Shown here one piece after another: positions 1,092 through 63,311 of a stretch of DNA of 64,000 bases (positions are counted from its first letter, which is position 1; each line of letters opens with the position of its first letter). Under the pieces are notes generated by a model. That model saw only the letters and a list, made by a program, of their open reading frames with translations, searched no databases and was not told the DNA's origin. Source of the DNA: Natronospirales bacterium (GTDB lineage Bacteria; Pseudomonadota; Gammaproteobacteria; Natronospirales; JAIVGZ01); NCBI GenBank assembly GCA_020201335.1, contig JAIVGZ010000033.1:29329-93328 (forward strand), given 5' to 3'. The position numbers were made by a program, and so were the translations under genes.

Positions 1092-1140
1092 AATCGCGAA
1101 TCACAGATTCGCTCCCACAGGCCAGAGGGCCGCTCCTACA
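1092..1140 (-). repeat. Composite REP-like block (two head+hairpin units)
   Basis: Minus strand reads TGTAGGAGCGGCCCTCTGGC then CTGTGGGAGCGAATCTGTGATTCGCGATT. The hairpins are GGCC-CTCT-GGCC and GCGAATC-TGT-GATTCGC. Confidence 0.85.
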
Positions 1141-1262
1141 TTGAGTACCGCGTCCCGGCGCAAGCGCGAAGCGACTTATGGGTTTCAGCCGGCTCTGTAA
1201 AAGCCGGTGAACCCATAGGAGCGAGCGGTGCGGCGGGCGCGGTGCCACTTGAGACCTCTGCC

Positions 1263-1330
1263 ATCGCGGTGCGGAGCACCGCTCCCACAATCACAGATTC
1301 GCTCCCACAGGCCAGAGGGCCGCTCCCACA
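1263..1330 (-). repeat. Composite REP-like block (three stacked units, three hairpin types)
   Basis: Minus strand reads TGTGGGAGCGGCCCTCTGGC + CTGTGGGAGCGAATCTGTGAT (3' arm missing) + TGTGGGAGCGGTGCTCCGCACCGCGAT. Confidence 0.85.
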
Positions 1331-1942: not shown

Positions 1943-1970
1943 GTCGCGAATCACAGATTCGCTCCCACAG
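1943..1970 (-). repeat. REP-like element (GCGAATC-TGT-GATTCGC type)
   Basis: Minus strand reads CTGTGGGAGCGAATCTGTGATTCGCGAC, ending 2 nt before the nudL ATG. Confidence 0.85.
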
Positions 1971-9086: not shown

Positions 9087-11825
<2,739 letters not shown>

Positions 11826-16835: not shown

Positions 16836-19800
16836 ATGGAGTACCTGATGCGATTGAACTTCCTGCTGCTGGCCGCCGCCTTGGTTGCCGCCCCGCTGTC
16901 CGCTGCCGAAGAGAACGGCTCCGAATGGGAAGTTTCCTCCCCCCCGCTCGATACCTACGAAGCGACGCTGTCGGTCTCCGAGGGGACGTGGATGAACGTC
17001 GATGTAAGCCCCGACGGCCGGGAAATCGCGTTCGACCTGCTCGGCGAAATTTATGTGATGCCAATTGGCGGCGGCGAAGCCCGCGCGCTGACCGGCGGCA
17101 TCGAGTGGAACATGCAGCCGAAGTACAGCCCCGATGGCCGCTGGATCGCGTTCACCTCGGACCGTTCGGGCGGCGACAACATCTGGGTGATGGCGCGCGA
17201 CGGCTCCGACCCACGGCAGGTGACCGACGAGTCGTTTCGCCTGCTGAACGGCCCAGCCTGGACACCCGACAGCGAGTTCATCGTCGCGCGCAAACATTTC
17301 ACTGGAACCCGTTCGCTCGGAGCCGGCGAGATGTGGCTGTACCACCGCAGCGGCGGTTCCGGGGTGCAGCTGACCACCAAGCCGGACGACCAGAAGGACG
17401 TCAACGAGCCGGTGTTTTCACCGGACGGTCGTTACCTTTACTACAGCCAGGACACGACGCCAGGCCCGTTCTTCCAATACAACAAGGACGTCAACGAACA
17501 GATTTATGTCATTCAGCGCCTCGACCGCGAGACCGGGGACACCATCGTCTTTGCAGGTGGGCCGGGTGGCGCAATCCGCCCGACGCCATCGCCGGATGGC
17601 CGCCAGTTGGCGTTCGTCCGCCGCATCCGCGGCGACAGCGTGCTGATGCTGAAGGACCTGCGCTCGGGGATCGAGACGCCGCTCTACACGGGCCTCGAGC
17701 AGGACCTGCAGGAGATCTGGGCGATCCACGGCGTGTACCCGGCATTCGCCTGGACACCGGACTCCCGCACCATCGTGTTTTGGGCGGGTGGCAAGATTCA
17801 CCGCATCGACGCCCGCAGCGGTTCGATCGCCGAAATCCCGTTCCGTGTCGAGGACACGCGCCAAATTGTTGAGGCCCAGCATGTAAGCGTCGACCCCGCG
17901 CCCGCGCGCTTCGACCTGAAAATGTTGCGCTGGGTTCAGGTCAGCCCGCGCGGCGACCGCGTCGTGTTCCAGGCGCTCGGCCACCTGTATGTGCGTGACC
18001 TGCCGAACGGCACACCGCGCCGTCTGACCCGCCAGAACGACCACTTCGAGCTGCAGCCGTCGTTCTCGCGCGACGGTCGCTTCATCGTATACACCAGCTG
18101 GAGCGACCGGGAGCTCGGCGCAGTACGCGTCGTGTCGGCGCGTGGCGGTACGGGACGCGCGGTGACCACCGAACCGGGCCACTACCACGACCCGGCCTTC
18201 TCTGCTGACGGGCGGCTCATCGCATTCCGAAAATCAGCGGGGAACAACCTCGTCTCCCCGCACTGGGGCCTGAATCCCGGCATCTATGTCGCGCCGGCTG
18301 CCGGTGGCGACGCACGCCTGCTGACCGACGACGGCTTCCAACCCCAGTTCGGCGCCGGATCCGACCGCGTCTACTACCTGCGCGTCGCTGATGGAAAGCG
18401 CCTGCTGTCCAGCATCGACGTCAACGGCGCCGAGCAGCGCGACCACCTGAGCAGCGAATGGGTGACCGAGTTCGCGCTGTCACCGGACGGCCGCTGGGTC
18501 GCGTTCAAGGAAAGGTATCAGGCGTTTGTGGCGCCGTTCATTGCGACCGGCGGCATCGTTGATGTCGGCCGGAACATGAAGTCGTTACCTTTGCGGCGCG
18601 TGTCGCGCGATGCCGGCGATTACCTGCACTGGTCCGGCGATTCTGACCGGCTGCACTGGTCGCTCGGACCCGAGCTCTACACGCTTGAGTTACGCGAGGC
18701 GTTCGCGTTCGCGGACGGTGCGCCGGAAGAATTGCCTTCACAGCCGGAAAGCGGCATCAACCTCGGCTTCACGGTCGCACATGACATCCCTGACGGCGTC
18801 ATCGCACTGACCGGCGCTCGGCTGGTCACGATGCGTGGCGACGAGGTTATCGAGGACGGCACGATCGTCATCGAGAATAACCGCATCCGTGCGGTCGGCC
18901 CGCGCGCCGAAGTCACCGTCCCGCGCGGCGCCCGCGTAGTCGATGTCGCCGGCGCAACCGTGATCCCCGGCCTCGTCGATGCGCACTGGCACGGCGCACA
19001 CGGGTCGAACCAGGTAATCCCACAGGAGAACTGGTACAAGCTGGCTGCGCTCGCGTTCGGTGTCACCACGATCCACAACCCTTCGACAGAATCGACACAG
19101 GTGTTCGCGGCCTCGGAGATGGTACGAGCCGGCAGGCTTACCGGTCCACGCACCTTCTCGACCGGCACAATCCTGTATGGAGCCACCACCGCGTTCACCG
19201 CGGAAGTCGAGGATTACGAAGATGCGCTGTCGCACATGCGGCGCTTGCGCGCGATGGGCGCGTTTACGGTGAAAAGCTACAACCAGCCACGCCGTGACCA
19301 GCGCCAGCAGTTCATCAAGGCGGCACAGGAGCTGGACATGATGGTGCACCCGGAAGGTGGTGCGCTGTTCCAGCACAACATGACGATGATCGCCGACGGC
19401 CACACCGGTATCGAGCACTCGCTGCCGGTGCCGATGGTGTACGAGGATGTGTTGCAGTTCTGGAGCCAGAGCCGCACGCGATACACGCCGACCCTTGGCG
19501 TCGCGTACGGGGGCATCCAGGGCGAACGCTACTGGTACCACCACACCAATGTGTGGGAGAACGAGCGGCTGAACGCGTTCGTGCCTCGCGAGGTGATCGA
19601 CCCCGCGTCACGGCGCCGGACCATGGCGCCCGACGAGGAATACAACCATATCCGCATTGCACGCGTTGCTAAGTTGCTGTCCGACCGTGGCGTGCCGGTG
19701 CAGCTCGGCGCGCACGGCCAGCGCGAAGGGCTCGCTGCGCATTGGGAGCTCTGGATGTTCGTACAAGGCGGGATGTCGCCGCATGAAGCGCTACGCGCCG

Positions 19801-20024
19801 GCACCTTGAACGGAGCCGCCTACCTCGGCATGGGCGAGCACCTTGGGTCACTGGAACCCGGCAAGCTCGCAGACCTCGTCGTAATAGACGGCAACCCGCT
19901 TGAGGACATCCGCCAATCGGAACGCGTCCGCTACACGATGGTGAACGGGCGTCTCTATGACGCCGCGACCATGAACGAAATGTGGCCGCGGCAACGCGAG
20001 CGCGGCCGCCTCTGGTGGGAGTGA
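16836..20024 (+). CDS. Secreted TolB-like beta-propeller / amidohydrolase fusion protein
   Basis: 1062 aa. It has a signal peptide (LLLAAALVAAPLSAAE), repeated PD40-type SPDGR..AF motifs, and a C-terminal metal-dependent amidohydrolase region with VDAHWHG. Confidence 0.8.
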   Translation: MEYLMRLNFLLLAAALVAAPLSAAEENGSEWEVSSPPLDTYEATLSVSEGTWMNVDVSPDGREIAFDLLGEIYVMPIGGGEARALTGGIEWNMQPKYSPDGRWIAFTSDRSGGDNIWVMARDGSDPRQVTDESFRLLNGPAWTPDSEFIVARKHFTGTRSLGAGEMWLYHRSGGSGVQLTTKPDDQKDVNEPVFSPDGRYLYYSQDTTPGPFFQYNKDVNEQIYVIQRLDRETGDTIVFAGGPGGAIRPTPSPDGRQLAFVRRIRGDSVLMLKDLRSGIETPLYTGLEQDLQEIWAIHGVYPAFAWTPDSRTIVFWAGGKIHRIDARSGSIAEIPFRVEDTRQIVEAQHVSVDPAPARFDLKMLRWVQVSPRGDRVVFQALGHLYVRDLPNGTPRRLTRQNDHFELQPSFSRDGRFIVYTSWSDRELGAVRVVSARGGTGRAVTTEPGHYHDPAFSADGRLIAFRKSAGNNLVSPHWGLNPGIYVAPAAGGDARLLTDDGFQPQFGAGSDRVYYLRVADGKRLLSSIDVNGAEQRDHLSSEWVTEFALSPDGRWVAFKERYQAFVAPFIATGGIVDVGRNMKSLPLRRVSRDAGDYLHWSGDSDRLHWSLGPELYTLELREAFAFADGAPEELPSQPESGINLGFTVAHDIPDGVIALTGARLVTMRGDEVIEDGTIVIENNRIRAVGPRAEVTVPRGARVVDVAGATVIPGLVDAHWHGAHGSNQVIPQENWYKLAALAFGVTTIHNPSTESTQVFAASEMVRAGRLTGPRTFSTGTILYGATTAFTAEVEDYEDALSHMRRLRAMGAFTVKSYNQPRRDQRQQFIKAAQELDMMVHPEGGALFQHNMTMIADGHTGIEHSLPVPMVYEDVLQFWSQSRTRYTPTLGVAYGGIQGERYWYHHTNVWENERLNAFVPREVIDPASRRRTMAPDEEYNHIRIARVAKLLSDRGVPVQLGAHGQREGLAAHWELWMFVQGGMSPHEALRAGTLNGAAYLGMGEHLGSLEPGKLADLVVIDGNPLEDIRQSERVRYTMVNGRLYDAATMNEMWPRQRERGRLWWE

Positions 20025-21756: not shown

Positions 21757-22341
21757 CTATAACGGCCTGACCGGAGCGGCACCCGCGGGTCTGACGCCGT
21801 GCGCGCCCACGAAGTACGCAGCCAGCGCGGCGAAATCCGCCGCCACCTCGCCTGTCAACGGTACTGCGTCGCCAATCCGTATTTCCTTTCGTTTTCCGTC
21901 AATCGCTACCGGAACGACCGGGACCCCCGCTCCGTGTGCAATCCGGTAGAAGCCGAGCTTCCAGCCGGCCGCGGCGCGGCGCGTTCCTTCCGGTGCAATC
22001 GCGACCAGCATCTCGTCGGCATCCTGTACCGCCGCAGCGACCCGCGCGACGGTGTCGCCGGGCTGGCTGCGGTCGACCGGCATGCCACCGAGGTAGCGCA
22101 TCCACACCCCGAGCGGCCCGCGGAACAGCGTGTGCTTGCCGAGGAAGGTCACATGCAGCCCGAGCGCGAACTTCGCCAGCAGCCCGATGATGAAGTCCCA
22201 GTTCGACGTATGCGGCGCGACGACAATCACGGCCTTGGGAATCGACGGGAATGTGCCGACGATGCGCCAACCGAACAGGCGAAGGAGCAAGCGGCTCACG
22301 TCAAATCGCGGTGCGGAGCGCCGCTCCCACCGAGGAGTCAT
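21757..22341 (-). CDS. 1-acyl-sn-glycerol-3-phosphate acyltransferase family protein
   Basis: HxxxxD motif (APHTSNWDF) and PEGTR motif. Start at MTPRWE, with an ATGA overlap on the upstream gene. Confidence 0.75.
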   Translation of the reverse strand: MTPRWERRSAPRFDVSRLLLRLFGWRIVGTFPSIPKAVIVVAPHTSNWDFIIGLLAKFALGLHVTFLGKHTLFRGPLGVWMRYLGGMPVDRSQPGDTVARVAAAVQDADEMLVAIAPEGTRRAAAGWKLGFYRIAHGAGVPVVPVAIDGKRKEIRIGDAVPLTGEVAADFAALAAYFVGAHGVRPAGAAPVRPL

Positions 22342-25856: not shown

Positions 25857-25861
25857 CCTAT

Positions 25862-25972
25862 CCCTGTGGGAGCGAATCTGTCCCCCCTCCCTGTGGGAGC
25901 GAATCTGTCCCCCTCCCTGTGGGAGCGAATCTGTCCCCCTCCCTGTGGGAGCGAATCTGTGATTCGCGACAG
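25862..25972 (+). repeat. Tandem array: three head-only REP units plus one complete REP
   Basis: CTGTGGGAGCGAATCTGT begins at 25864, 25891, 25917 and 25943 (periods 27, 26 and 26 nt). The first three copies are followed by CCCCC(C)TCC. The last is followed by GATTCGCGAC, which completes the hairpin. Confidence 0.9.
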
Positions 25973-26468: not shown

Positions 26469-27917
<1,449 letters not shown>

Positions 27918-27935
27918 ATGATCCAAACGAACAAA

Positions 27936-27963
27936 TGTAGGAGCGGTGCTCCGCACCGCGATT
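27936..27963 (+). repeat. REP-like element (GCGGTGC-TCC-GCACCGC type)
   Basis: TGTAGGAGCGGTGCTCCGCACCGCGATT lies in the sufB-sufC spacer. Confidence 0.9.
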
Positions 27964-27972
27964 GGAGTGGAA

Positions 27973-28728
27973 ATGCTGAAAATTGAAAACCTGAAAGTCC
28001 GCGTCGCCGGCCAGGAAATCCTCAAGGGCCTGGACCTCGAGGTGAATGCCGGCGAGGTACACGCGATCATGGGTCCGAACGGCTCCGGCAAGAGCACCCT
28101 CGCCCATGTACTCGCGGGCCGCCCAGGCTACGAGGTCACCGGCGGTAGCGCGCTGTACGAAGGCCGCGACTTGCTCGCAATGGCACCCGAGGAGCGTGCG
28201 CGCGAGGGCGTGTTCCTGGCATTCCAGTACCCGGTCGAGATCCCTGGCGTCAACAACGTGTACTTCCTGAAGGCGGCGATTAACGCCGTGCGCCGCCATC
28301 GCGGCGAGCAGGAGCTCGACGCGATGGACTTCCTCGCGCTGGTCAAAGAACGAATCAAGCTGGTCGAGCTCGACGAGAGCCTGCTGAACCGCTCGATCAA
28401 CGAAGGCTTCTCCGGCGGCGAGAAAAAGCGCAACGAAATATTCCAGATGGCGGTGCTCGAGCCCAAGCTCGCCCTGCTCGACGAGACCGATTCAGGCCTC
28501 GACATCGACGCACTACGCGTCGTCGCTGCCGGCATCAACGCGCTGCGATCACCGGACCGCGCGATGGTGCTTGTCACCCATTACCAGCGTCTGCTCGACT
28601 ACGTAAAGCCGGATGTCGTGCATGTGCTCTCCGCCGGCCGCATCGTAAAGAGCGGCCCCCCGGAACTTGCGAAGGAACTGGAGACGCGAGGTTACGACTG
28701 GGTCGTGCAGGAGGCGCGCAGCGCATGA
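27973..28728 (+). CDS. sufC: Fe-S cluster assembly ATPase SufC
   Basis: Starts MLKIENL, with Walker A GPNGSGKST and the ABC signature FSGGEKKR. 251 aa. Confidence 0.95.
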   Translation: MLKIENLKVRVAGQEILKGLDLEVNAGEVHAIMGPNGSGKSTLAHVLAGRPGYEVTGGSALYEGRDLLAMAPEERAREGVFLAFQYPVEIPGVNNVYFLKAAINAVRRHRGEQELDAMDFLALVKERIKLVELDESLLNRSINEGFSGGEKKRNEIFQMAVLEPKLALLDETDSGLDIDALRVVAAGINALRSPDRAMVLVTHYQRLLDYVKPDVVHVLSAGRIVKSGPPELAKELETRGYDWVVQEARSA

Positions 28729-29870
28729 ACGCGCTGGTCGACTGGTTGCCACGTCCCGGAGACGAGGCGTACAAGTACACCTCGTTCGCCGCGCTGGCGC
28801 GCCGCAAGTACGCGGCGCCGGCACCCGGCACGGTCGATGCCGCGCAGCTGCCCGCGCCATTTGGCGCCCGCCTCCTATTCGTCGATGGCCGCCTTCAGGA
28901 CCGCGACGGAGCGCCTGAATGTGGGAGCGGTGCTCCGCACCGCGATTTGCCTGAATCTGCCACCGCCCTCCGCAAGATGAACGCGGCCCTTGCGACCGAA
29001 TCCATCACACTCGACATCCCTCCCGACACCGACGCGGGCGTCATCGAACTCCTGTTCGCGTCCAGCGACCACGCCACGCCCGTAGCCTCGTACCCGCAGG
29101 TCACAGTCACGGTCGGCGCAAACGCCAAGGTCACGCTGGTCGAACGCCATGTCGCACTTGGCGAGGCGCAAGACTTCACTAACCTTGCCATAGACATGCA
29201 GGTTGCACGCGGTGCGTGCGTAACCCACATCGCGTTGCAACAGGGAGCGACCGGCGCCGCGCTGGCGACCGGGCTCCACGCGACGCTCGCGGTGGATGCG
29301 CAATTCGACAGCCACGCTGTGCACCTTGGGGGCGCACTCGTGCGTGCCGACCTGACGGTCACGCTGGCCGGGCGCGGTGCGCGCTGCGCGTTATACGGGG
29401 TGCACCTGCCCGGCATGCGCCAGCACATCGACACACATACCCGCATCGAGCACATGGTACGCGACACGACCAGCGTCGAGGAATATCGCGCCGTCGTCGA
29501 CCGCGGCGGTCGCTCGGTGTTCAACGGCAAGGTTTTCGTTGCAAAGGGTGCGGACGGCACTGACGCGCAGCAGTTCAACGCGAACCTGCTTCTGTCCGAG
29601 CAGGCGGAAGCGGACACCAAGCCGGAGCTCGAGATATACGCCGACGACGTTAAATGTGCGCACGGCGCGACGGTCGGCAAGCTCGATGAGGCCGCAATGT
29701 TCTACCTGCGCACGCGCGGCATCGGCGTGGAGGCCGCACGCAGCGTACTCATTTGGGCGTTCGTCGAGACGGTACTGACGAAAATTCCGTTGGCTGACGC
29801 ACGCCGCTCAATCGAGGATGCGGTGCTGGCGCGGCTGCCGGATGCGGGCCTGATCGGGGAGTTCCGGTGA
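28725..29870 (+). CDS. sufD: Fe-S cluster assembly protein SufD
   Basis: Sits after sufC with a 4-nt overlap. C-terminal SufBD pattern (KPELEIYADDVKCAHGATVG). Confidence 0.9.
   Translation: MNALVDWLPRPGDEAYKYTSFAALARRKYAAPAPGTVDAAQLPAPFGARLLFVDGRLQDRDGAPECGSGAPHRDLPESATALRKMNAALATESITLDIPPDTDAGVIELLFASSDHATPVASYPQVTVTVGANAKVTLVERHVALGEAQDFTNLAIDMQVARGACVTHIALQQGATGAALATGLHATLAVDAQFDSHAVHLGGALVRADLTVTLAGRGARCALYGVHLPGMRQHIDTHTRIEHMVRDTTSVEEYRAVVDRGGRSVFNGKVFVAKGADGTDAQQFNANLLLSEQAEADTKPELEIYADDVKCAHGATVGKLDEAAMFYLRTRGIGVEAARSVLIWAFVETVLTKIPLADARRSIEDAVLARLPDAGLIGEFR
28920..28947 (+). repeat. REP-like element embedded in frame in sufD
   Basis: TGTGGGAGCGGTGCTCCGCACCGCGATT is translated as ECGSGAPHRDL. 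It is flanked by GCCTGAAT at 28913-28920 and 28949-28956. Confidence 0.9.
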
Positions 29871-32099: not shown

Positions 32100-32416
32100 T
32101 GGCGTGGGTCGAGGTCGGGCGCACCGACGAGTTTCTGCCGGGCACACATCGGGTGGTCGAAGCCGGCGGTACCTTCATCGCCGTGTTCAACCTCGACGGA
32201 AACTTCTACGCAATTGAAGACATCTGCACGCACGACGGCGGCGAGCTGACCGGCGGCACGGTCGAAGGCGACGAGGTCATCTGCCCACGCCACGGCGCAC
32301 GGTTCTGCATCAAAACCGGCAACGCCCTGACACCGCCGGCCTACGAACCGACCGCGGCGTTCCCGGTTGTCGTCGAAGACGGCGTGATCAGGACGCGGGA
32401 CGACCGCTGGGACTAG
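32099..32416 (+). CDS. Rieske [2Fe-2S] ferredoxin-like protein
   Basis: Rieske ligands CTHDGGEL...CPRHGARF. 105 aa. Confidence 0.85.
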   Translation: MAWVEVGRTDEFLPGTHRVVEAGGTFIAVFNLDGNFYAIEDICTHDGGELTGGTVEGDEVICPRHGARFCIKTGNALTPPAYEPTAAFPVVVEDGVIRTRDDRWD

Positions 32417-32424
32417 CGTGAGTC

Positions 32425-33222
32425 TCACTTCGTTGGAAGCGTCGCGGTGGGAATGTCCTCAGGATCCATAATCAGCGGGCGCTGCGGCATATAATCAAGC
32501 AACATGTCTGTTTCCTTCTTGACCACTTTGTAGCACTCGCAACTCAGGGTTTCGAGTTTCTTCCGGTCAAGCACCTTGATTAACCCACGCGAGTAGGAGA
32601 TTACGCCCAGGTGTTGCAATTTTATCGCGGCTTCGGTGACCCCTTCGCGGCGAACGCCAAGCATGTTGGCGATAAACTCCTGCGTCATCGTCAAATGGTT
32701 ATGTGACAAGCGATCCATGGAAAGCAGGAGCCAGCGGCAAAGCTGCTGGGCGATTGAATGATGGCGGTTGCAGACTGCGGTCTGCGAGACTTGAGTAATC
32801 AAGGCCTGTGTGTAGCGCAGCATCAGCAGCAGCAACTGGCCGTGGCGGTCGAACTCCTCTCTCACCCGAGGCCTTGGGAGCCGATACGCGTAACCGGCGC
32901 TCTGTACCAATGACCGGCTAGGGGTACTCTCCCCGCCCATAAACAATGTGATGCCCAGCAAGCCCTCGTTTCCCACCACCGAGATTGCAGTCGAATCCCC
33001 GTTTTCCATCATGTACTGCATGGAGACGATGGAGTCCGTGGGAAAGTAAACGTGTTGCATGGGGCGTCCGGATTCATACAGGAGCGCGCGCAACGGCAGC
33101 GGCACCAGCTCCAAATGCTGAAACAAACGCCCCTGAACTTCTGGCGACAAAGCCGCCAGCAGATGATTCTGCTGCGGATTAGGCGCGGCAGACTCGTCCT
33201 GAACTTTCTTTCGTGGCGTCAC
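32425..33222 (-). CDS. Crp/Fnr family transcriptional regulator
   Basis: Contains NHLLAALSPEV, a cNMP-binding-like beta-roll, and a C-terminal HTH (TQEFIANMLGVRREGVTEAA). G+C is clearly lower than in the flanks. Confidence 0.85.
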   Translation of the reverse strand: MTPRKKVQDESAAPNPQQNHLLAALSPEVQGRLFQHLELVPLPLRALLYESGRPMQHVYFPTDSIVSMQYMMENGDSTAISVVGNEGLLGITLFMGGESTPSRSLVQSAGYAYRLPRPRVREEFDRHGQLLLLMLRYTQALITQVSQTAVCNRHHSIAQQLCRWLLLSMDRLSHNHLTMTQEFIANMLGVRREGVTEAAIKLQHLGVISYSRGLIKVLDRKKLETLSCECYKVVKKETDMLLDYMPQRPLIMDPEDIPTATLPTK

Positions 33223-33851: not shown

Positions 33852-34248
33852 CGGGCGGTGCCTGGTACAGGCGGGTGACCGCAGCACGGCCCCACCGAGG
33901 GACGGTGACGATAAACACATCGCCGTAACGGTCCTCGGAAATCTCGCCGACATTTCGGCCGGACAGCGCGGCGACCAACACGGGTACCGTGTTGCTGTGC
34001 CCGACAATCACGATCGTGTCCGAGCGGTGCCGCGAGCGGATCTTTTCGATGAAGCGTTCTGTCTCGGCCGCATCGTAACGCTGTATCGGCAGCGACAGCC
34101 GTTCGGCGAGCGGCGTCGCAGTTTCGCCGGTGCGGCGGTACTGGCTCGCGTAGATTGCGTCGATGCGGGCCGATGCCAAGAGCTCGGCGAGGCGTTCGGC
34201 ACGCGCCTGTCCGGCCTGCGAGAGCGCCGGGTCGGTCGGTACGCGTCG
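33844..34248 (-). pseudogene. Histidine phosphatase (SixA/PhoE-like) lacking its N-terminal catalytic RHxE segment
   Basis: The in-frame stretch RRVPTDPALSQAGQARAERLAELLASARIDAIYASQYRRTGETATPL...IVIVGHSNTVP matches the family from the DPxLS motif onward. A TAG sits immediately upstream. There is no RH(A/G)E motif or signal peptide, and the first possible start is a TTG at 34179. Confidence 0.55.
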
Positions 34249-44037: not shown

Positions 44038-44681
44038 CAGCGGATGACGTCAGCGCCGGGTGGCGGCACAAAGCGAAACACACCGTCGTCAATCTCGACG
44101 TTGCGCGCGACGCCGGTGAATTCGATGCGTGTGGTCTGTCCGAATCCGTCGACCAATTCCATCACCGCGAGCTCTTCCCCGCGAAAGGCGATGCGCACCG
44201 CCTCGAATTCTGTGTCGCGCTCGTGCGGGATAAGCCCGACCCAGGCCAGCCCACCGGCGCCGTCGAGCGCAACGACTTCCGAATGTGCGCGGAGGTCGCC
44301 GCTACCGGACAAAAGCATTGCCGGCGTGGACGCGAGCGTCCGGTCGAGTGCCCGCACGGTCACTTGAGCCAATTCTTCGTCATACATCCAGAGGTCCTGA
44401 CCGTCTGCGACGATCACCTGTACGTACGGCTCGCGGTAATCCCAACGGAAGCGCCCGGGCTTGCGCACGGCCAGCGTACCGCTGACCTGCTGCAGCGTCT
44501 CGCCGTCGGCGTCGACGACCGACTGCGTGAAATCGGCGCGCAGCGTCGTCACCTCAGCCAGGAAGCGGTCCAATGCCACCTCTCCACCAGCAGCATGCGC
44601 GGGTGTGGGAGCGATGCTCCGCATCGCGATTAACAAAGCGACCGCGGCAATCTTCAGGGTGAATCGGCTCATCGTCATCAA
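44037..44681 (-). CDS. lolA: Outer-membrane lipoprotein carrier LolA
   Basis: Contains [23 protein letters not shown] and [14 protein letters not shown]. It has a signal peptide and sits between ftsK and rarA. Confidence 0.9.
44604..44631 (+). repeat. REP-like element inside the lolA signal-peptide coding region (antisense to lolA)
   Basis: TGTGGGAGCGATGCTCCGCATCGCGATT. Read on the lolA strand it encodes [10 protein letters not shown]. The stem is GCGATGC/GCATCGC, against GCGGTGC/GCACCGC in the other copies. Confidence 0.85.
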
Positions 44682-60270: not shown

Positions 60271-61067
60271 CGCACTACCGGGACAAGGTGGTCTGGGTCA
60301 CCGGCGCCTCCGCCGGAATCGGCGCGGCGCTCGCACGCGTGTTCGCGCGCGACGGCGCGCGCCTTGTGCTGTCAGCGCGACGGCTGCCCCAGCTCGAGGA
60401 GACCCGCGCCAGCTGTCTGGCACTGGGCGCGGCCGCCGTCCTCGTTGTTCCTCTCGACCTGGAGGATCCGGATGCGCACGGCGCGGCGGTCGACCACGTT
60501 GTTGCCGAATTCGGTCGCATCGACCTCCTCGTCAACAACGCCGGCATCAGCCAGCGTTCGCTCGCCGCTGACACGGTACTCGAGGTTGACCGCCGCTTGG
60601 TCAACGCCAATTACCTCGGCACCGTGAGCCTGACGAAGGCGGTCCTGGCGGTGATGCGCCGCCAGCGGAGCGGACAACTCGCCGCAGTAACGAGCCTGGT
60701 CGGCCACATCGGCACACCGATGCGCTCGTCGTACGCAGCGTCAAAACATGCGTTGCACGGCTTCTTCGACTCACTGCGCGCGGAGGTCTGGCGCGATGGC
60801 ATCTCGGTAACGCTTGCCTGCCCCGGCTTCATCCGCACCGATGTGTCGGTCAATGCGCTGTCGGCCGACGGAAGCCCACACAATGTAGTCGACCGCGGCC
60901 AGGCCAACGGCATGGACCCCGACCGATGTGCGGAGCGGATTGTGCGCGGATTGCGTAAAGGCAAAGCCGAGGTGTGGGTCGGCGGCAAGGAAGTGTTCGC
61001 AGTGTGGATCGAACGATTCATGCCGGCGGTGTACCGGGTGATGGCGAAACGAATAGACCCAACCTGA
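60267..61067 (+). CDS. SDR family oxidoreductase
   Basis: Contains VTGASAGIG, NNAG and YAASKHAL. The GTG start makes a GTGA overlap with the gspF stop. Confidence 0.85.
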   Translation: MTHYRDKVVWVTGASAGIGAALARVFARDGARLVLSARRLPQLEETRASCLALGAAAVLVVPLDLEDPDAHGAAVDHVVAEFGRIDLLVNNAGISQRSLAADTVLEVDRRLVNANYLGTVSLTKAVLAVMRRQRSGQLAAVTSLVGHIGTPMRSSYAASKHALHGFFDSLRAEVWRDGISVTLACPGFIRTDVSVNALSADGSPHNVVDRGQANGMDPDRCAERIVRGLRKGKAEVWVGGKEVFAVWIERFMPAVYRVMAKRIDPT

Positions 61068-61094
61068 ATCTCGGTGCGGAGCACCGCTCCTACA
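61068..61094 (-). repeat. REP-like element filling the whole convergent spacer
   Basis: Reverse complement reads TGTAGGAGCGGTGCTCCGCACCGAGAT. It begins 1 nt after the SDR stop (61067) and ends 1 nt before the fabH stop (61095). Confidence 0.9.
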
Positions 61095-63119: not shown

Positions 63120-63311
63120 CTATTCGTCCGCGATATCCTTGCGGGTTTCGATGACTTTCTTGCCGCGGTAGTAACCGTCCGGCGTGATGTGGTGACGACG
63201 ATGCGTCTCGCCAGAAGTCGGGTCGACCGACAGCGTGGGCCCCGTCAGTGCATCGTGCGAACGGCGCATGCCGCGCGTCGAGCGTGTTCTACGGCTTTTC
63301 TGGACTGCCAC
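63120..63311 (-). CDS. rpmF: 50S ribosomal protein L32
   Basis: (M)[21 protein letters not shown]. The start codon is GTG (63311-63309) with no visible SD, and it lies inside the yceD reading frame. Confidence 0.9.

Follow-up and report, generated by a model that had tools for sequence, protein, structure and literature searches.

Repetitive extragenic palindromes (REPs) of the GTAG type have been reported inside protein-coding genes by Di Nocera, De Gregorio & Rocco (2013, BMC Genomics 14:522; PMC3733652). The inserts described there resemble the one studied here in that a short palindrome with a GT(A/G)G head lies wholly inside a known protein gene and in frame, and they were proposed to be located in flexible loops or linkers. 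More than 50% of them are dimers or groups, differing REPs occupy about the same recB site in two Xanthomonas species, and neither 'duplication' nor 'target site' appears in the main text of that report (PMC3733652). REPs and the REP doublets called REPINs, which are linked to REP-associated tyrosine transposases (RAYTs), share with our element a conserved tetranucleotide on the 5' side and, after it, a GC-rich hairpin (Nunvar 2010, PMC2817692; Bertels & Rainey 2011, PMC3116915; Corneloup 2021, PMC8266576), and the mechanism of REP dissemination is still unknown (PMC8266576). Here we analyze a REP copy within the sufD gene on a 64,000-nucleotide stretch (hereafter the window) of contig JAIVGZ010000033.1 from a Natronospirales bacterium. 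Our preferred reading, with a probability of roughly 0.55, is that the REP sits in a sufD loop that REPs have long used, and that a rare 36-nt event at this site was kept by selection for the reading frame.

The insert spans positions 28913-28956 on the plus strand and consists of an 8-nt direct repeat, GCCTGAAT (28913-28920, codons ..CCT GAA T..), a 28-nt REP body, GTGGGAGCGGTGCTCCGCACCGCGATTT (28921-28948), and an exact second copy of the repeat, GCCTGAAT (28949-28956). The REP body has the head GTGGGAGCG, with GTGG as its tetranucleotide, and the tail CGCGATTT, and it forms a hairpin with a 7-bp GC-rich stem (GCGGTGC/GCACCGC, 28927-28933 and 28937-28943) and the loop TCC. The last three nucleotides of the left repeat, AAT, fit an extended 5' REP consensus. 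Because the insert adds 28 + 8 = 36 nt, twelve codons are gained and the frame is kept; both the sequence and its translation bear out an earlier note on this DNA, which had described a REP between two copies of GCCTGAAT that lengthens sufD in frame. SufD reads ...DRDGAPE-CGSGAPHRDLPE-SATALRKMN... around the insert (wider flanks, FVDGRLQDRDGAPE before and SATALRKMNAAL after), the REP body is translated as (C)GSGAPHRD(L) and occupies sufD codons 66-75, and the peptide over the insert is ECGSGAPHRDLPESATALR. A REP of the sufD type is open in all six reading frames, and the GTAG variant is closed in one. Considered as an intrinsic terminator, the hairpin is followed by three T only and has a fold z-score of -1.4.

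The element is a real GTAG-type REP and belongs to the commonest palindromic repeat family of this genome. Six copies of the sufD 28-mer with ≤3 mismatches are present in the window versus none in 100 shuffles, a looser search finds about 12 family copies, and the density of the family in REP-bearing genomes is 0.16-0.56 per kb. In an alignment of 24 copies from six genomes, the head GTRGGAGCG and the tail CGCGA are kept with a covarying hairpin between them; GT[A/G]G followed by an invariant GAGCG is found in 22 of the 24 copies, and three of the six predicted stem pairs show double-sided compensatory changes (7-9 sequences each). The sufD copy is identical to the family consensus. The short palindrome, the GTRG foot, the dispersed copies and the compensated stem are thus all present, and the extragenic location that gives REPs their name is the one attribute that the sufD copy lacks: every other copy in the window is intergenic, typically filling the gap between convergent or co-directional genes. 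The identification of the insert as a genuine REP, proposed in the earlier note, is borne out by the copy number, the kept ends and the compensated stem.

The host gene is the open reading frame (ORF) at 28725-29870 (+), whose 381-aa product is a short form of SufD without the N-terminal extension of ~50 aa. This assignment is based on the SUFBD core domain (PF01458), the match to E. coli SufD (E = 4e-44, residues 8-370), the gene order (an Rrf2-sufB-sufC-sufD-sufS-NifU_N-SufT-Rieske operon) and an AlphaFold2 (AF2) model that shows a beta-helix with a mean predicted local distance difference test score (pLDDT) of 92.6. In the model, the insert (residues 66-77) forms a short strand and coil ahead of the helix at 81-89, with slightly reduced confidence (block pLDDT 83-91). 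It lies in a loop that varies in length, situated in the N-terminal domain of SufD and bounded by the FVDGR strand and the ALRKMNAAL helix. The placement in a variable N-terminal part of the protein, as given in the earlier note, is supported. The loop from FVDG to ALxxMN is 25-32 aa long across all short-form SufDs, with or without a REP, and would be 13 aa in the window SufD if the insert were removed. Short-form SufD proteins (380-388 aa) are typical of this small uncultured gammaproteobacterial clade (the window and relatives P0002-P0007) and lack both the N-terminal extension of ~50 residues (PF19295) and ~15 loop residues; a typical SufD has 430-450 aa, with the extension and a longer loop, and the 55%-identical SufD of the related locus L016 is among these.

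The independent assembly GCA_046260275.1 encodes an identical SufD on contig JBHEPN010000017.1, where the REP and the two 8-mers are likewise present. This contig and JBHEPN010000015.1 of the same assembly are 99.7-100% identical to the window and carry single-nucleotide differences and several insertions or deletions elsewhere. The insert is not an assembly artefact, because an independent, non-identical assembly contains it, and its presence in two strains confirms that sufD tolerates a REP.

REPs occupy the same SufD loop in four related species with 62-68% SufD identity, making five lineages together with the window. In L001 (68% SufD identity), two plus-strand copies lie 36 nt apart (ttgaat-GTAGGAGCGGCGTCTCGCCGCGAT-gaaaaattcact-GTAGGAGCGGTACCTTCGCGCCGCGAT). 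L004 (66%) has one plus-strand copy, orthologous to the second copy of L001 (5/27 differences), together with CTCGCCGGCGAT, the 3' half of the first copy, and shows an 18-nt in-frame deletion. At least one plus-strand copy, GTAGGAGCGACGCAATGCGTCGCGAC, is present in L012/L013 (65%), where the assemblies break just upstream, and L007 (62%) carries two minus-strand copies in a 42-nt duplication, its protein reading QDSRPEGRSH twice. The sufD genes of L014, L002 and L016 (60%, 58% and 55%) have no REP, and no REP of the window family was found anywhere in the 2-21 kb of these three loci. In all plus-strand cases the CGCGAY tail is read as Arg-Asp/Glu and lies 15-30 nt, a multiple of three, from the conserved codons GCC CTC CGC, and the head is read in differing frames because REP length varies (24, 26 or 27 nt). 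In the window and in L004 alike, the sufD copy fits the REP subfamily of the respective genome. Because the loop REPs of the four relatives are not alike in number of copies (1-2), strand, reading frame and degree of decay, the SufD loop appears to be a long-standing REP site with turnover or one that is repeatedly colonized. The site was probably colonized long ago and the window copy is probably its latest occupant, so the insertion is not simply new. The suggestion that these REPs move holds to the extent that REPs at the sufD loop clearly change over time; the 8-nt repeat does not serve as proof of it. The two independent assemblies L012 and L013 both end ≤20 nt upstream of the sufD REP (L012 1-45, L013 1-30), suggesting a repeat cluster that short-read assemblers cannot cross, and because the assemblies end there, SufD is called as a truncated 310-aa protein with its start inside the REP.

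The reading we prefer would account for these observations as follows. The 28-nt element is an ordinary member of the main GTRG-headed REP family of the genome, and the sufD loop would have hosted REPs before the related lineages diverged, or would be re-colonized repeatedly. Copies in the loop would be gained, locally duplicated, inverted or re-inserted, partly deleted and replaced, with only frame-keeping states surviving. Since the REP is open in six frames, the survival filters would be a length divisible by three and the tolerance of the loop. The exact match to the consensus and the exact flanking repeat point to the window copy as the latest occupant, which a single event may have added as 36 nt, comprising the REP and a target duplication of 5-8 nt, either when a staggered break was filled in or when the template was switched at the hairpin. 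Selection would then have enriched a rare, atypical 36-nt product, which would not be the regular signature of REP spread; had only 28 nt been inserted, the sufD frame would have shifted and the allele would have been lost, which would be why a duplication is visible here and not elsewhere. The twelve encoded residues may be neutral or serve as spacer residues of the loop.

Several points weigh against this reading. The exact, abutting 8-nt repeat has the look of a regular target-site duplication, and a second 8-nt case exists in L001. A single-protein neighbor-joining tree of SufD places the REP-less L016 within the REP-bearing group, and such a tree is compatible with shared ancestry as well as with independent gains. 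A decayed older REP in the sufD linker flanks was considered and rejected, as its best local alignment score is equaled by 30% of random window segments; with no significant remnant of an older REP in the flanks, it is position and frame that would mark the window copy as the latest occupant of an old site. In addition, the empty site for which the earlier note proposed a search in relatives, which would read ..GCGCCTGAATCTGCC.. (or ..GACGGAGCGCCTGAATCTGCCACC..) with a single GCCTGAAT, was looked for and not found. A protein database search returned no SufD of more than 68% and less than 100% identity, a genome scan for sufD relatives gave only those at 68% and 58%, and divergence in the loop prevents an alignment with the REP-less orthologues; GCCTGAAT is absent from the sufD of the REP-less orthologues at 58-60% identity. 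Direct demonstration of the insertion and of its one-step origin would take such an empty-site allele.

The statistics of the flanking repeat bear on all of the explanations. In the whole window, 8-mers recur exactly 36 nt downstream six times, and of window positions drawn at random, 0.3% show a direct repeat of ≥8 nt that lies no more than 6 nt from each of the two borders of a 28-nt gap. After correction for the ~12-26 REP copies inspected, a chance origin of the sufD repeat has a probability of ~1-4%, up to ~7% when the copies are counted most generously, which makes it unlikely but not negligible. About 24 of the 26 family copies examined have no flanking repeat of ≥6 nt, including the near-consensus copies at 27937, 22303, 1261 and L021x 457; single-strand insertion of the IS200/IS605 kind would lead one to expect such bare flanks. 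The 8-nt repeats flank two of the 26 copies, versus 0.08 expected: the sufD copy and one in the sufB-sufC spacer of L001, which has the exact repeat TGGTAACG. The motif GGTAACG is present three times in that spacer, so that the L001 repeat is ambiguous and its value as independent support is weakened. When the sufD copy is excluded, one case in 25 at p = 0.003 each corresponds to P ~0.07. The composition of the flanks is also non-random: of 27 copies, 15 have A at -3 and 17 have T at -1, and after the CGCGA tail 18 have T at +1 and 14 have T at +2, suggesting that the true REP unit is probably AMT-GTRGG...CGCGA-TT. Because the AAT of the left 8-mer may belong to the element, the duplicated target may be as short as 5 nt (GCCTG) and at most 8 nt.

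That the repeat is a regular target-site duplication, made by an enzyme with 8-bp staggered cuts (DDE-type or other) rather than by IS200/IS605-like single-strand transposition and since decayed at other copies, appears quite unlikely. The exact repeat abutting the sufD REP, the second exact case (TGGTAACG; 2/26 versus 0.08 expected) and the open state of the dissemination question (PMC8266576) speak for it, but the excess falls to P ~0.07 once the copy that prompted the analysis is set aside, and the L001 motif GGTAACG has its two further occurrences in the same spacer. The element ends implied by the two cases also disagree (ACAG+REP+T versus REP+TT), the near-consensus copies listed above have no repeat, and a 28-nt hairpin offers none of the terminal inverted repeats that DDE transposases bind. 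With no empty site, ~24 of 26 copies lacking a repeat, and a strain difference without duplication (described below), the proposal of the earlier note that the repeat reveals a non-RAYT target-site duplication is not upheld. A related reading, in which the repeat is a genuine footprint and at least some GTRG-type REPs gain access to double-stranded DNA where a staggered break of 8 bp (or 5-8 bp) is filled in, is unlikely. If true, it would imply a route distinct from the duplication-free IS200/IS605 model assumed for RAYTs, and the sufD loop would be a natural trap that keeps such footprints, its coding flanks being constrained.

An older origin of the copy is unlikely as well. Here, an ancient orthologous REP would have been kept family-like by gene conversion or by in-place compensatory change, and the 8-nt repeat would be a later slippage product or a frame-restoring duplication that compensated a change of REP length (26 versus 27 nt). 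Four lineages agree in tail frame and in the distance to the ALR codons, the head frame varies exactly with REP length (26, 24 and 27 nt), the second REP of L001 and the REP of L004 are clearly orthologous, with half of the first REP retained in L004, and local duplications at REPs do occur in this genome, all as this explanation would have it. However, its two steps pass through a frameshifted sufD, an 8-nt duplication across a 28-nt hairpin is no simple product of tandem slippage, and the opposite-strand copies of L007 need at least one independent event in any case. RecA-pathway gene conversion between dispersed repeats of 26 nt is inefficient. Still less probable than a regular duplication is a RAYT or IS200/IS605-like insertion of a 36-nt unit, the REP with 8 nt of the 3' flank of its donor, pasted 3' of a TGAAT-like motif. 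The donor would have been cut after a TGAAT-like motif, the donor REP would be followed by TTGCCTGAAT, and the repeat would consist of identical left and right cleavage motifs and 3 nt of chance identity. The non-random 5' flank (A at -3, T at -1) fits this proposal, as does AAT or TGAAT before the first REP of L001, the window copies at 27937 and 61066 and the L004 copy at 9216, and GTAG-headed REPs are known RAYT substrates (PMC2817692, PMC3733652). Nevertheless, the recurrence of the 5' pentamer downstream of REPs is not significant (P = 0.08-0.10), the extra GCC match is needed by chance (~3%), a search of the window and the loci with an E. coli YafM query returned no RAYT gene, and AAT may simply be the foot of the palindrome, since AAT...ATT is complementary. 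For IS608 and ISDra2, the insertion point lies 3' of a set four- or five-nucleotide motif; a fixed pentamer target of the IS608 kind gained no significant support here from the same recurrence test. Mere coincidence of the two GCCTGAAT copies, with a REP inserted or inherited without any duplication, is very improbable. Owing to coding periodicity, the 64 kb do contain six cases of an 8-mer recurring at +36 nt, and the look-elsewhere correction over REP copies leaves ~1-4%, but the probability per site does not exceed ~1e-3, the repeat lies exactly against the element, and it supplies precisely the 8 nt needed for the frame.

The other REPs of the window include four full copies without a flanking repeat. 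A copy of the same subfamily with two mismatches lies between sufB and sufC at 27937-27964 (+), separated by 8 nt from the sufC ATG downstream of it, and its tail (CGCGATTGGAGTGGAAATG) appears to provide the sufC ribosome-binding site GGAG. The copy at 22303-22330 (-) has one mismatch and fills the gap between two same-strand genes; the intergenic copy at 44605-44632 (+) has a compensated stem change (GCGATGC/GCATCGC); and the copy at 61066-61093 (-) fills a 27-nt gap between convergent genes. At 1261-1329 (-), the 3'-truncated copies GTGGGAGCGGCCCTCTGGCC and GTGGGAGCGAATCTGTGATT, separated by a T, form a chain joined directly to a full copy of the sufD subfamily (1261-1288). Two REPs with AATC/GATT stems lie at 1094-1118 (-), preceded by a truncated REP with a GGCC stem in a composite that recurs in L021 beyond the window, and at 1944-1968 (-), intergenic and identical in the other strain. 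In the chains (1261-1329 (-), 1094-1140 and L021 ~19800-19835), upstream copies end after 20 nt: they retain head, 5' stem, loop and 3' stem, lack the CGCGAT tail, and abut the next REP directly. The composite of a 20-nt GGCC-stem REP, a T and an AATC-stem REP is present at at least three loci and may thus be a repeated unit in its own right. Immediately upstream of the gene for the Rrf2-type regulator of the suf operon, a tandem array at 25861-25969 (+) has 3.8 copies of a 26-nt unit with 98% matches and ends in a full REP (25945-25969). Its unit, 10 nt of flank (CCCCCTCCCT) and the first 16 nt of the REP up to the hairpin apex, looks like the product of repeated template switching at the hairpin. 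As the array and the chain at 1261-1329 attest, local duplication associated with REPs occurs in this genome.

Elsewhere in the relatives, the sufB-sufC spacer holds head-to-head inverted, REPIN-like doublets in L001 (2137-2219) and L004 (9176-9241) and a single REP in L007 (423-446), so that as many as three sites in the suf operon of the clade have REPs, one upstream of the regulator, one in the sufB-sufC spacer and one within sufD. A further subfamily, GGAGCGGCGCTCCGCGCCGCGAT, keeps a 5' extension of ~19 nt, CCGTCGCTGG(A/T)TGC(G/A)TCAG, at L001 2139-2180 (-) and L004 18785-18828; because two species share this extension at loci that are not orthologous, the mobile unit of this subfamily extends beyond the hairpin. 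No RAYT gene was detected at E < 3 by tblastn in the window and all loci, with an E. coli YafM sequence as the query; the search covered ~64 kb and the loci of relatives, a small part of the genome. A metagenome scan for the REP returned three loci only.

All REPs common to the two strains are identical, and a clean pair of filled and empty sites was not found between them. The copy at 27937, the one REP by whose presence the strains differ, is absent from the other strain, where a patch of ~80 nt (27914-27993, versus L011 9206-9270) has diverged without any duplication. The patch covers the sufB stop codon (TGA versus TAG), the entire sufB-sufC spacer and the first sufC codons, with synonymous changes. 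The presence or absence of this REP as an insertion was rejected, as the whole patch has diverged, including the synonymous changes at the ends of sufB and sufC; the patch looks like a short recombination import. Three further strain differences were inspected as possible REP events and rejected, as no REP is involved. At 63310/63311 the window lacks 136 nt that are found in the other strain (L021 14256-14391), comprising the rpmF (L32) ATG, the spacer and the last ~39 yceD codons, and the junction makes a GTG that replaces the L32 ATG; this may be either a real deletion or an assembly fault. The other strain also has a ~470-nt segment with a DUF6678 gene 3' of the Rieske gene (L011 13690-14161; absent at window 32414-32430) and a ~150-nt segment at the start of a His_Phos_1 gene (L011 15968-16120; absent at window 34235-34238).

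Insertion footprints of REPs are rare because REP flanks are mostly unconstrained intergenic DNA. A REP in a well-conserved gene is useful in this respect, offering constrained flanks and a series of orthologues with one copy, two copies, copies on the opposite strand, a half-deleted copy or none. The series documents gain, duplication and decay of REPs under a reading-frame filter, and it shows that REP-derived codons can form a third to half of a loop whose length is otherwise conserved. Among known systems, the MITEs, short for miniature inverted-repeat transposable elements, measure 70-300 bp and have terminal inverted repeats of 15-30 bp and a constant duplication at most copies. Like the REPs here, DDE-mobilized MITEs such as Correia and RUP are small non-autonomous repeats, and their new insertions come with short target-site duplications; the present element differs in being 28 nt long with an internal 7-bp stem only and in lacking a duplication at ~24 of 26 copies, and it does not qualify as a MITE. 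Rickettsia palindromic elements (RPEs), reportedly described by Ogata and co-workers in 2000 in frame within ORFs and typically in surface loops, are ~100-150 bp long, belong to CGTC-type or other families and are unrelated in sequence to the REP here; no association with RAYTs is known for them. What they have in common with the sufD case is that selfish palindromes are tolerated in frame in functional, even essential genes (RPEs are cited in PMC3733652).

With the REP/REPIN-RAYT systems, our family shares many dispersed copies, subfamilies with compensated stem changes, clusters and chains, and, in the sufB-sufC spacers of L001 and L004, head-to-head doublets. It differs from them in that neither the 64 kb nor the loci yielded a RAYT gene, most copies are singlets rather than REPIN doublets, and the sufD copy is intragenic and flanked by a direct repeat, a feature not predicted by chemistry of the IS200/IS605 type. 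This repeat is a single putative footprint bearing on REP dissemination, suggestive as a weak clue. The closest precedent remains the set of intragenic REPs of Di Nocera et al. (PMC3733652), whose dimers and groups resemble the sufD states of L001 and L007. DNA replication and repair genes are highlighted in that study, whereas the host gene here is sufD, and, unlike the cases reported there, five lineages carry REPs at one site in both orientations, with two head frames and a partly deleted copy, which together make a turnover series. Intragenic REPs as such are already known; to these the sufD series adds one more gene and one more lineage, as a new example of unusual richness.

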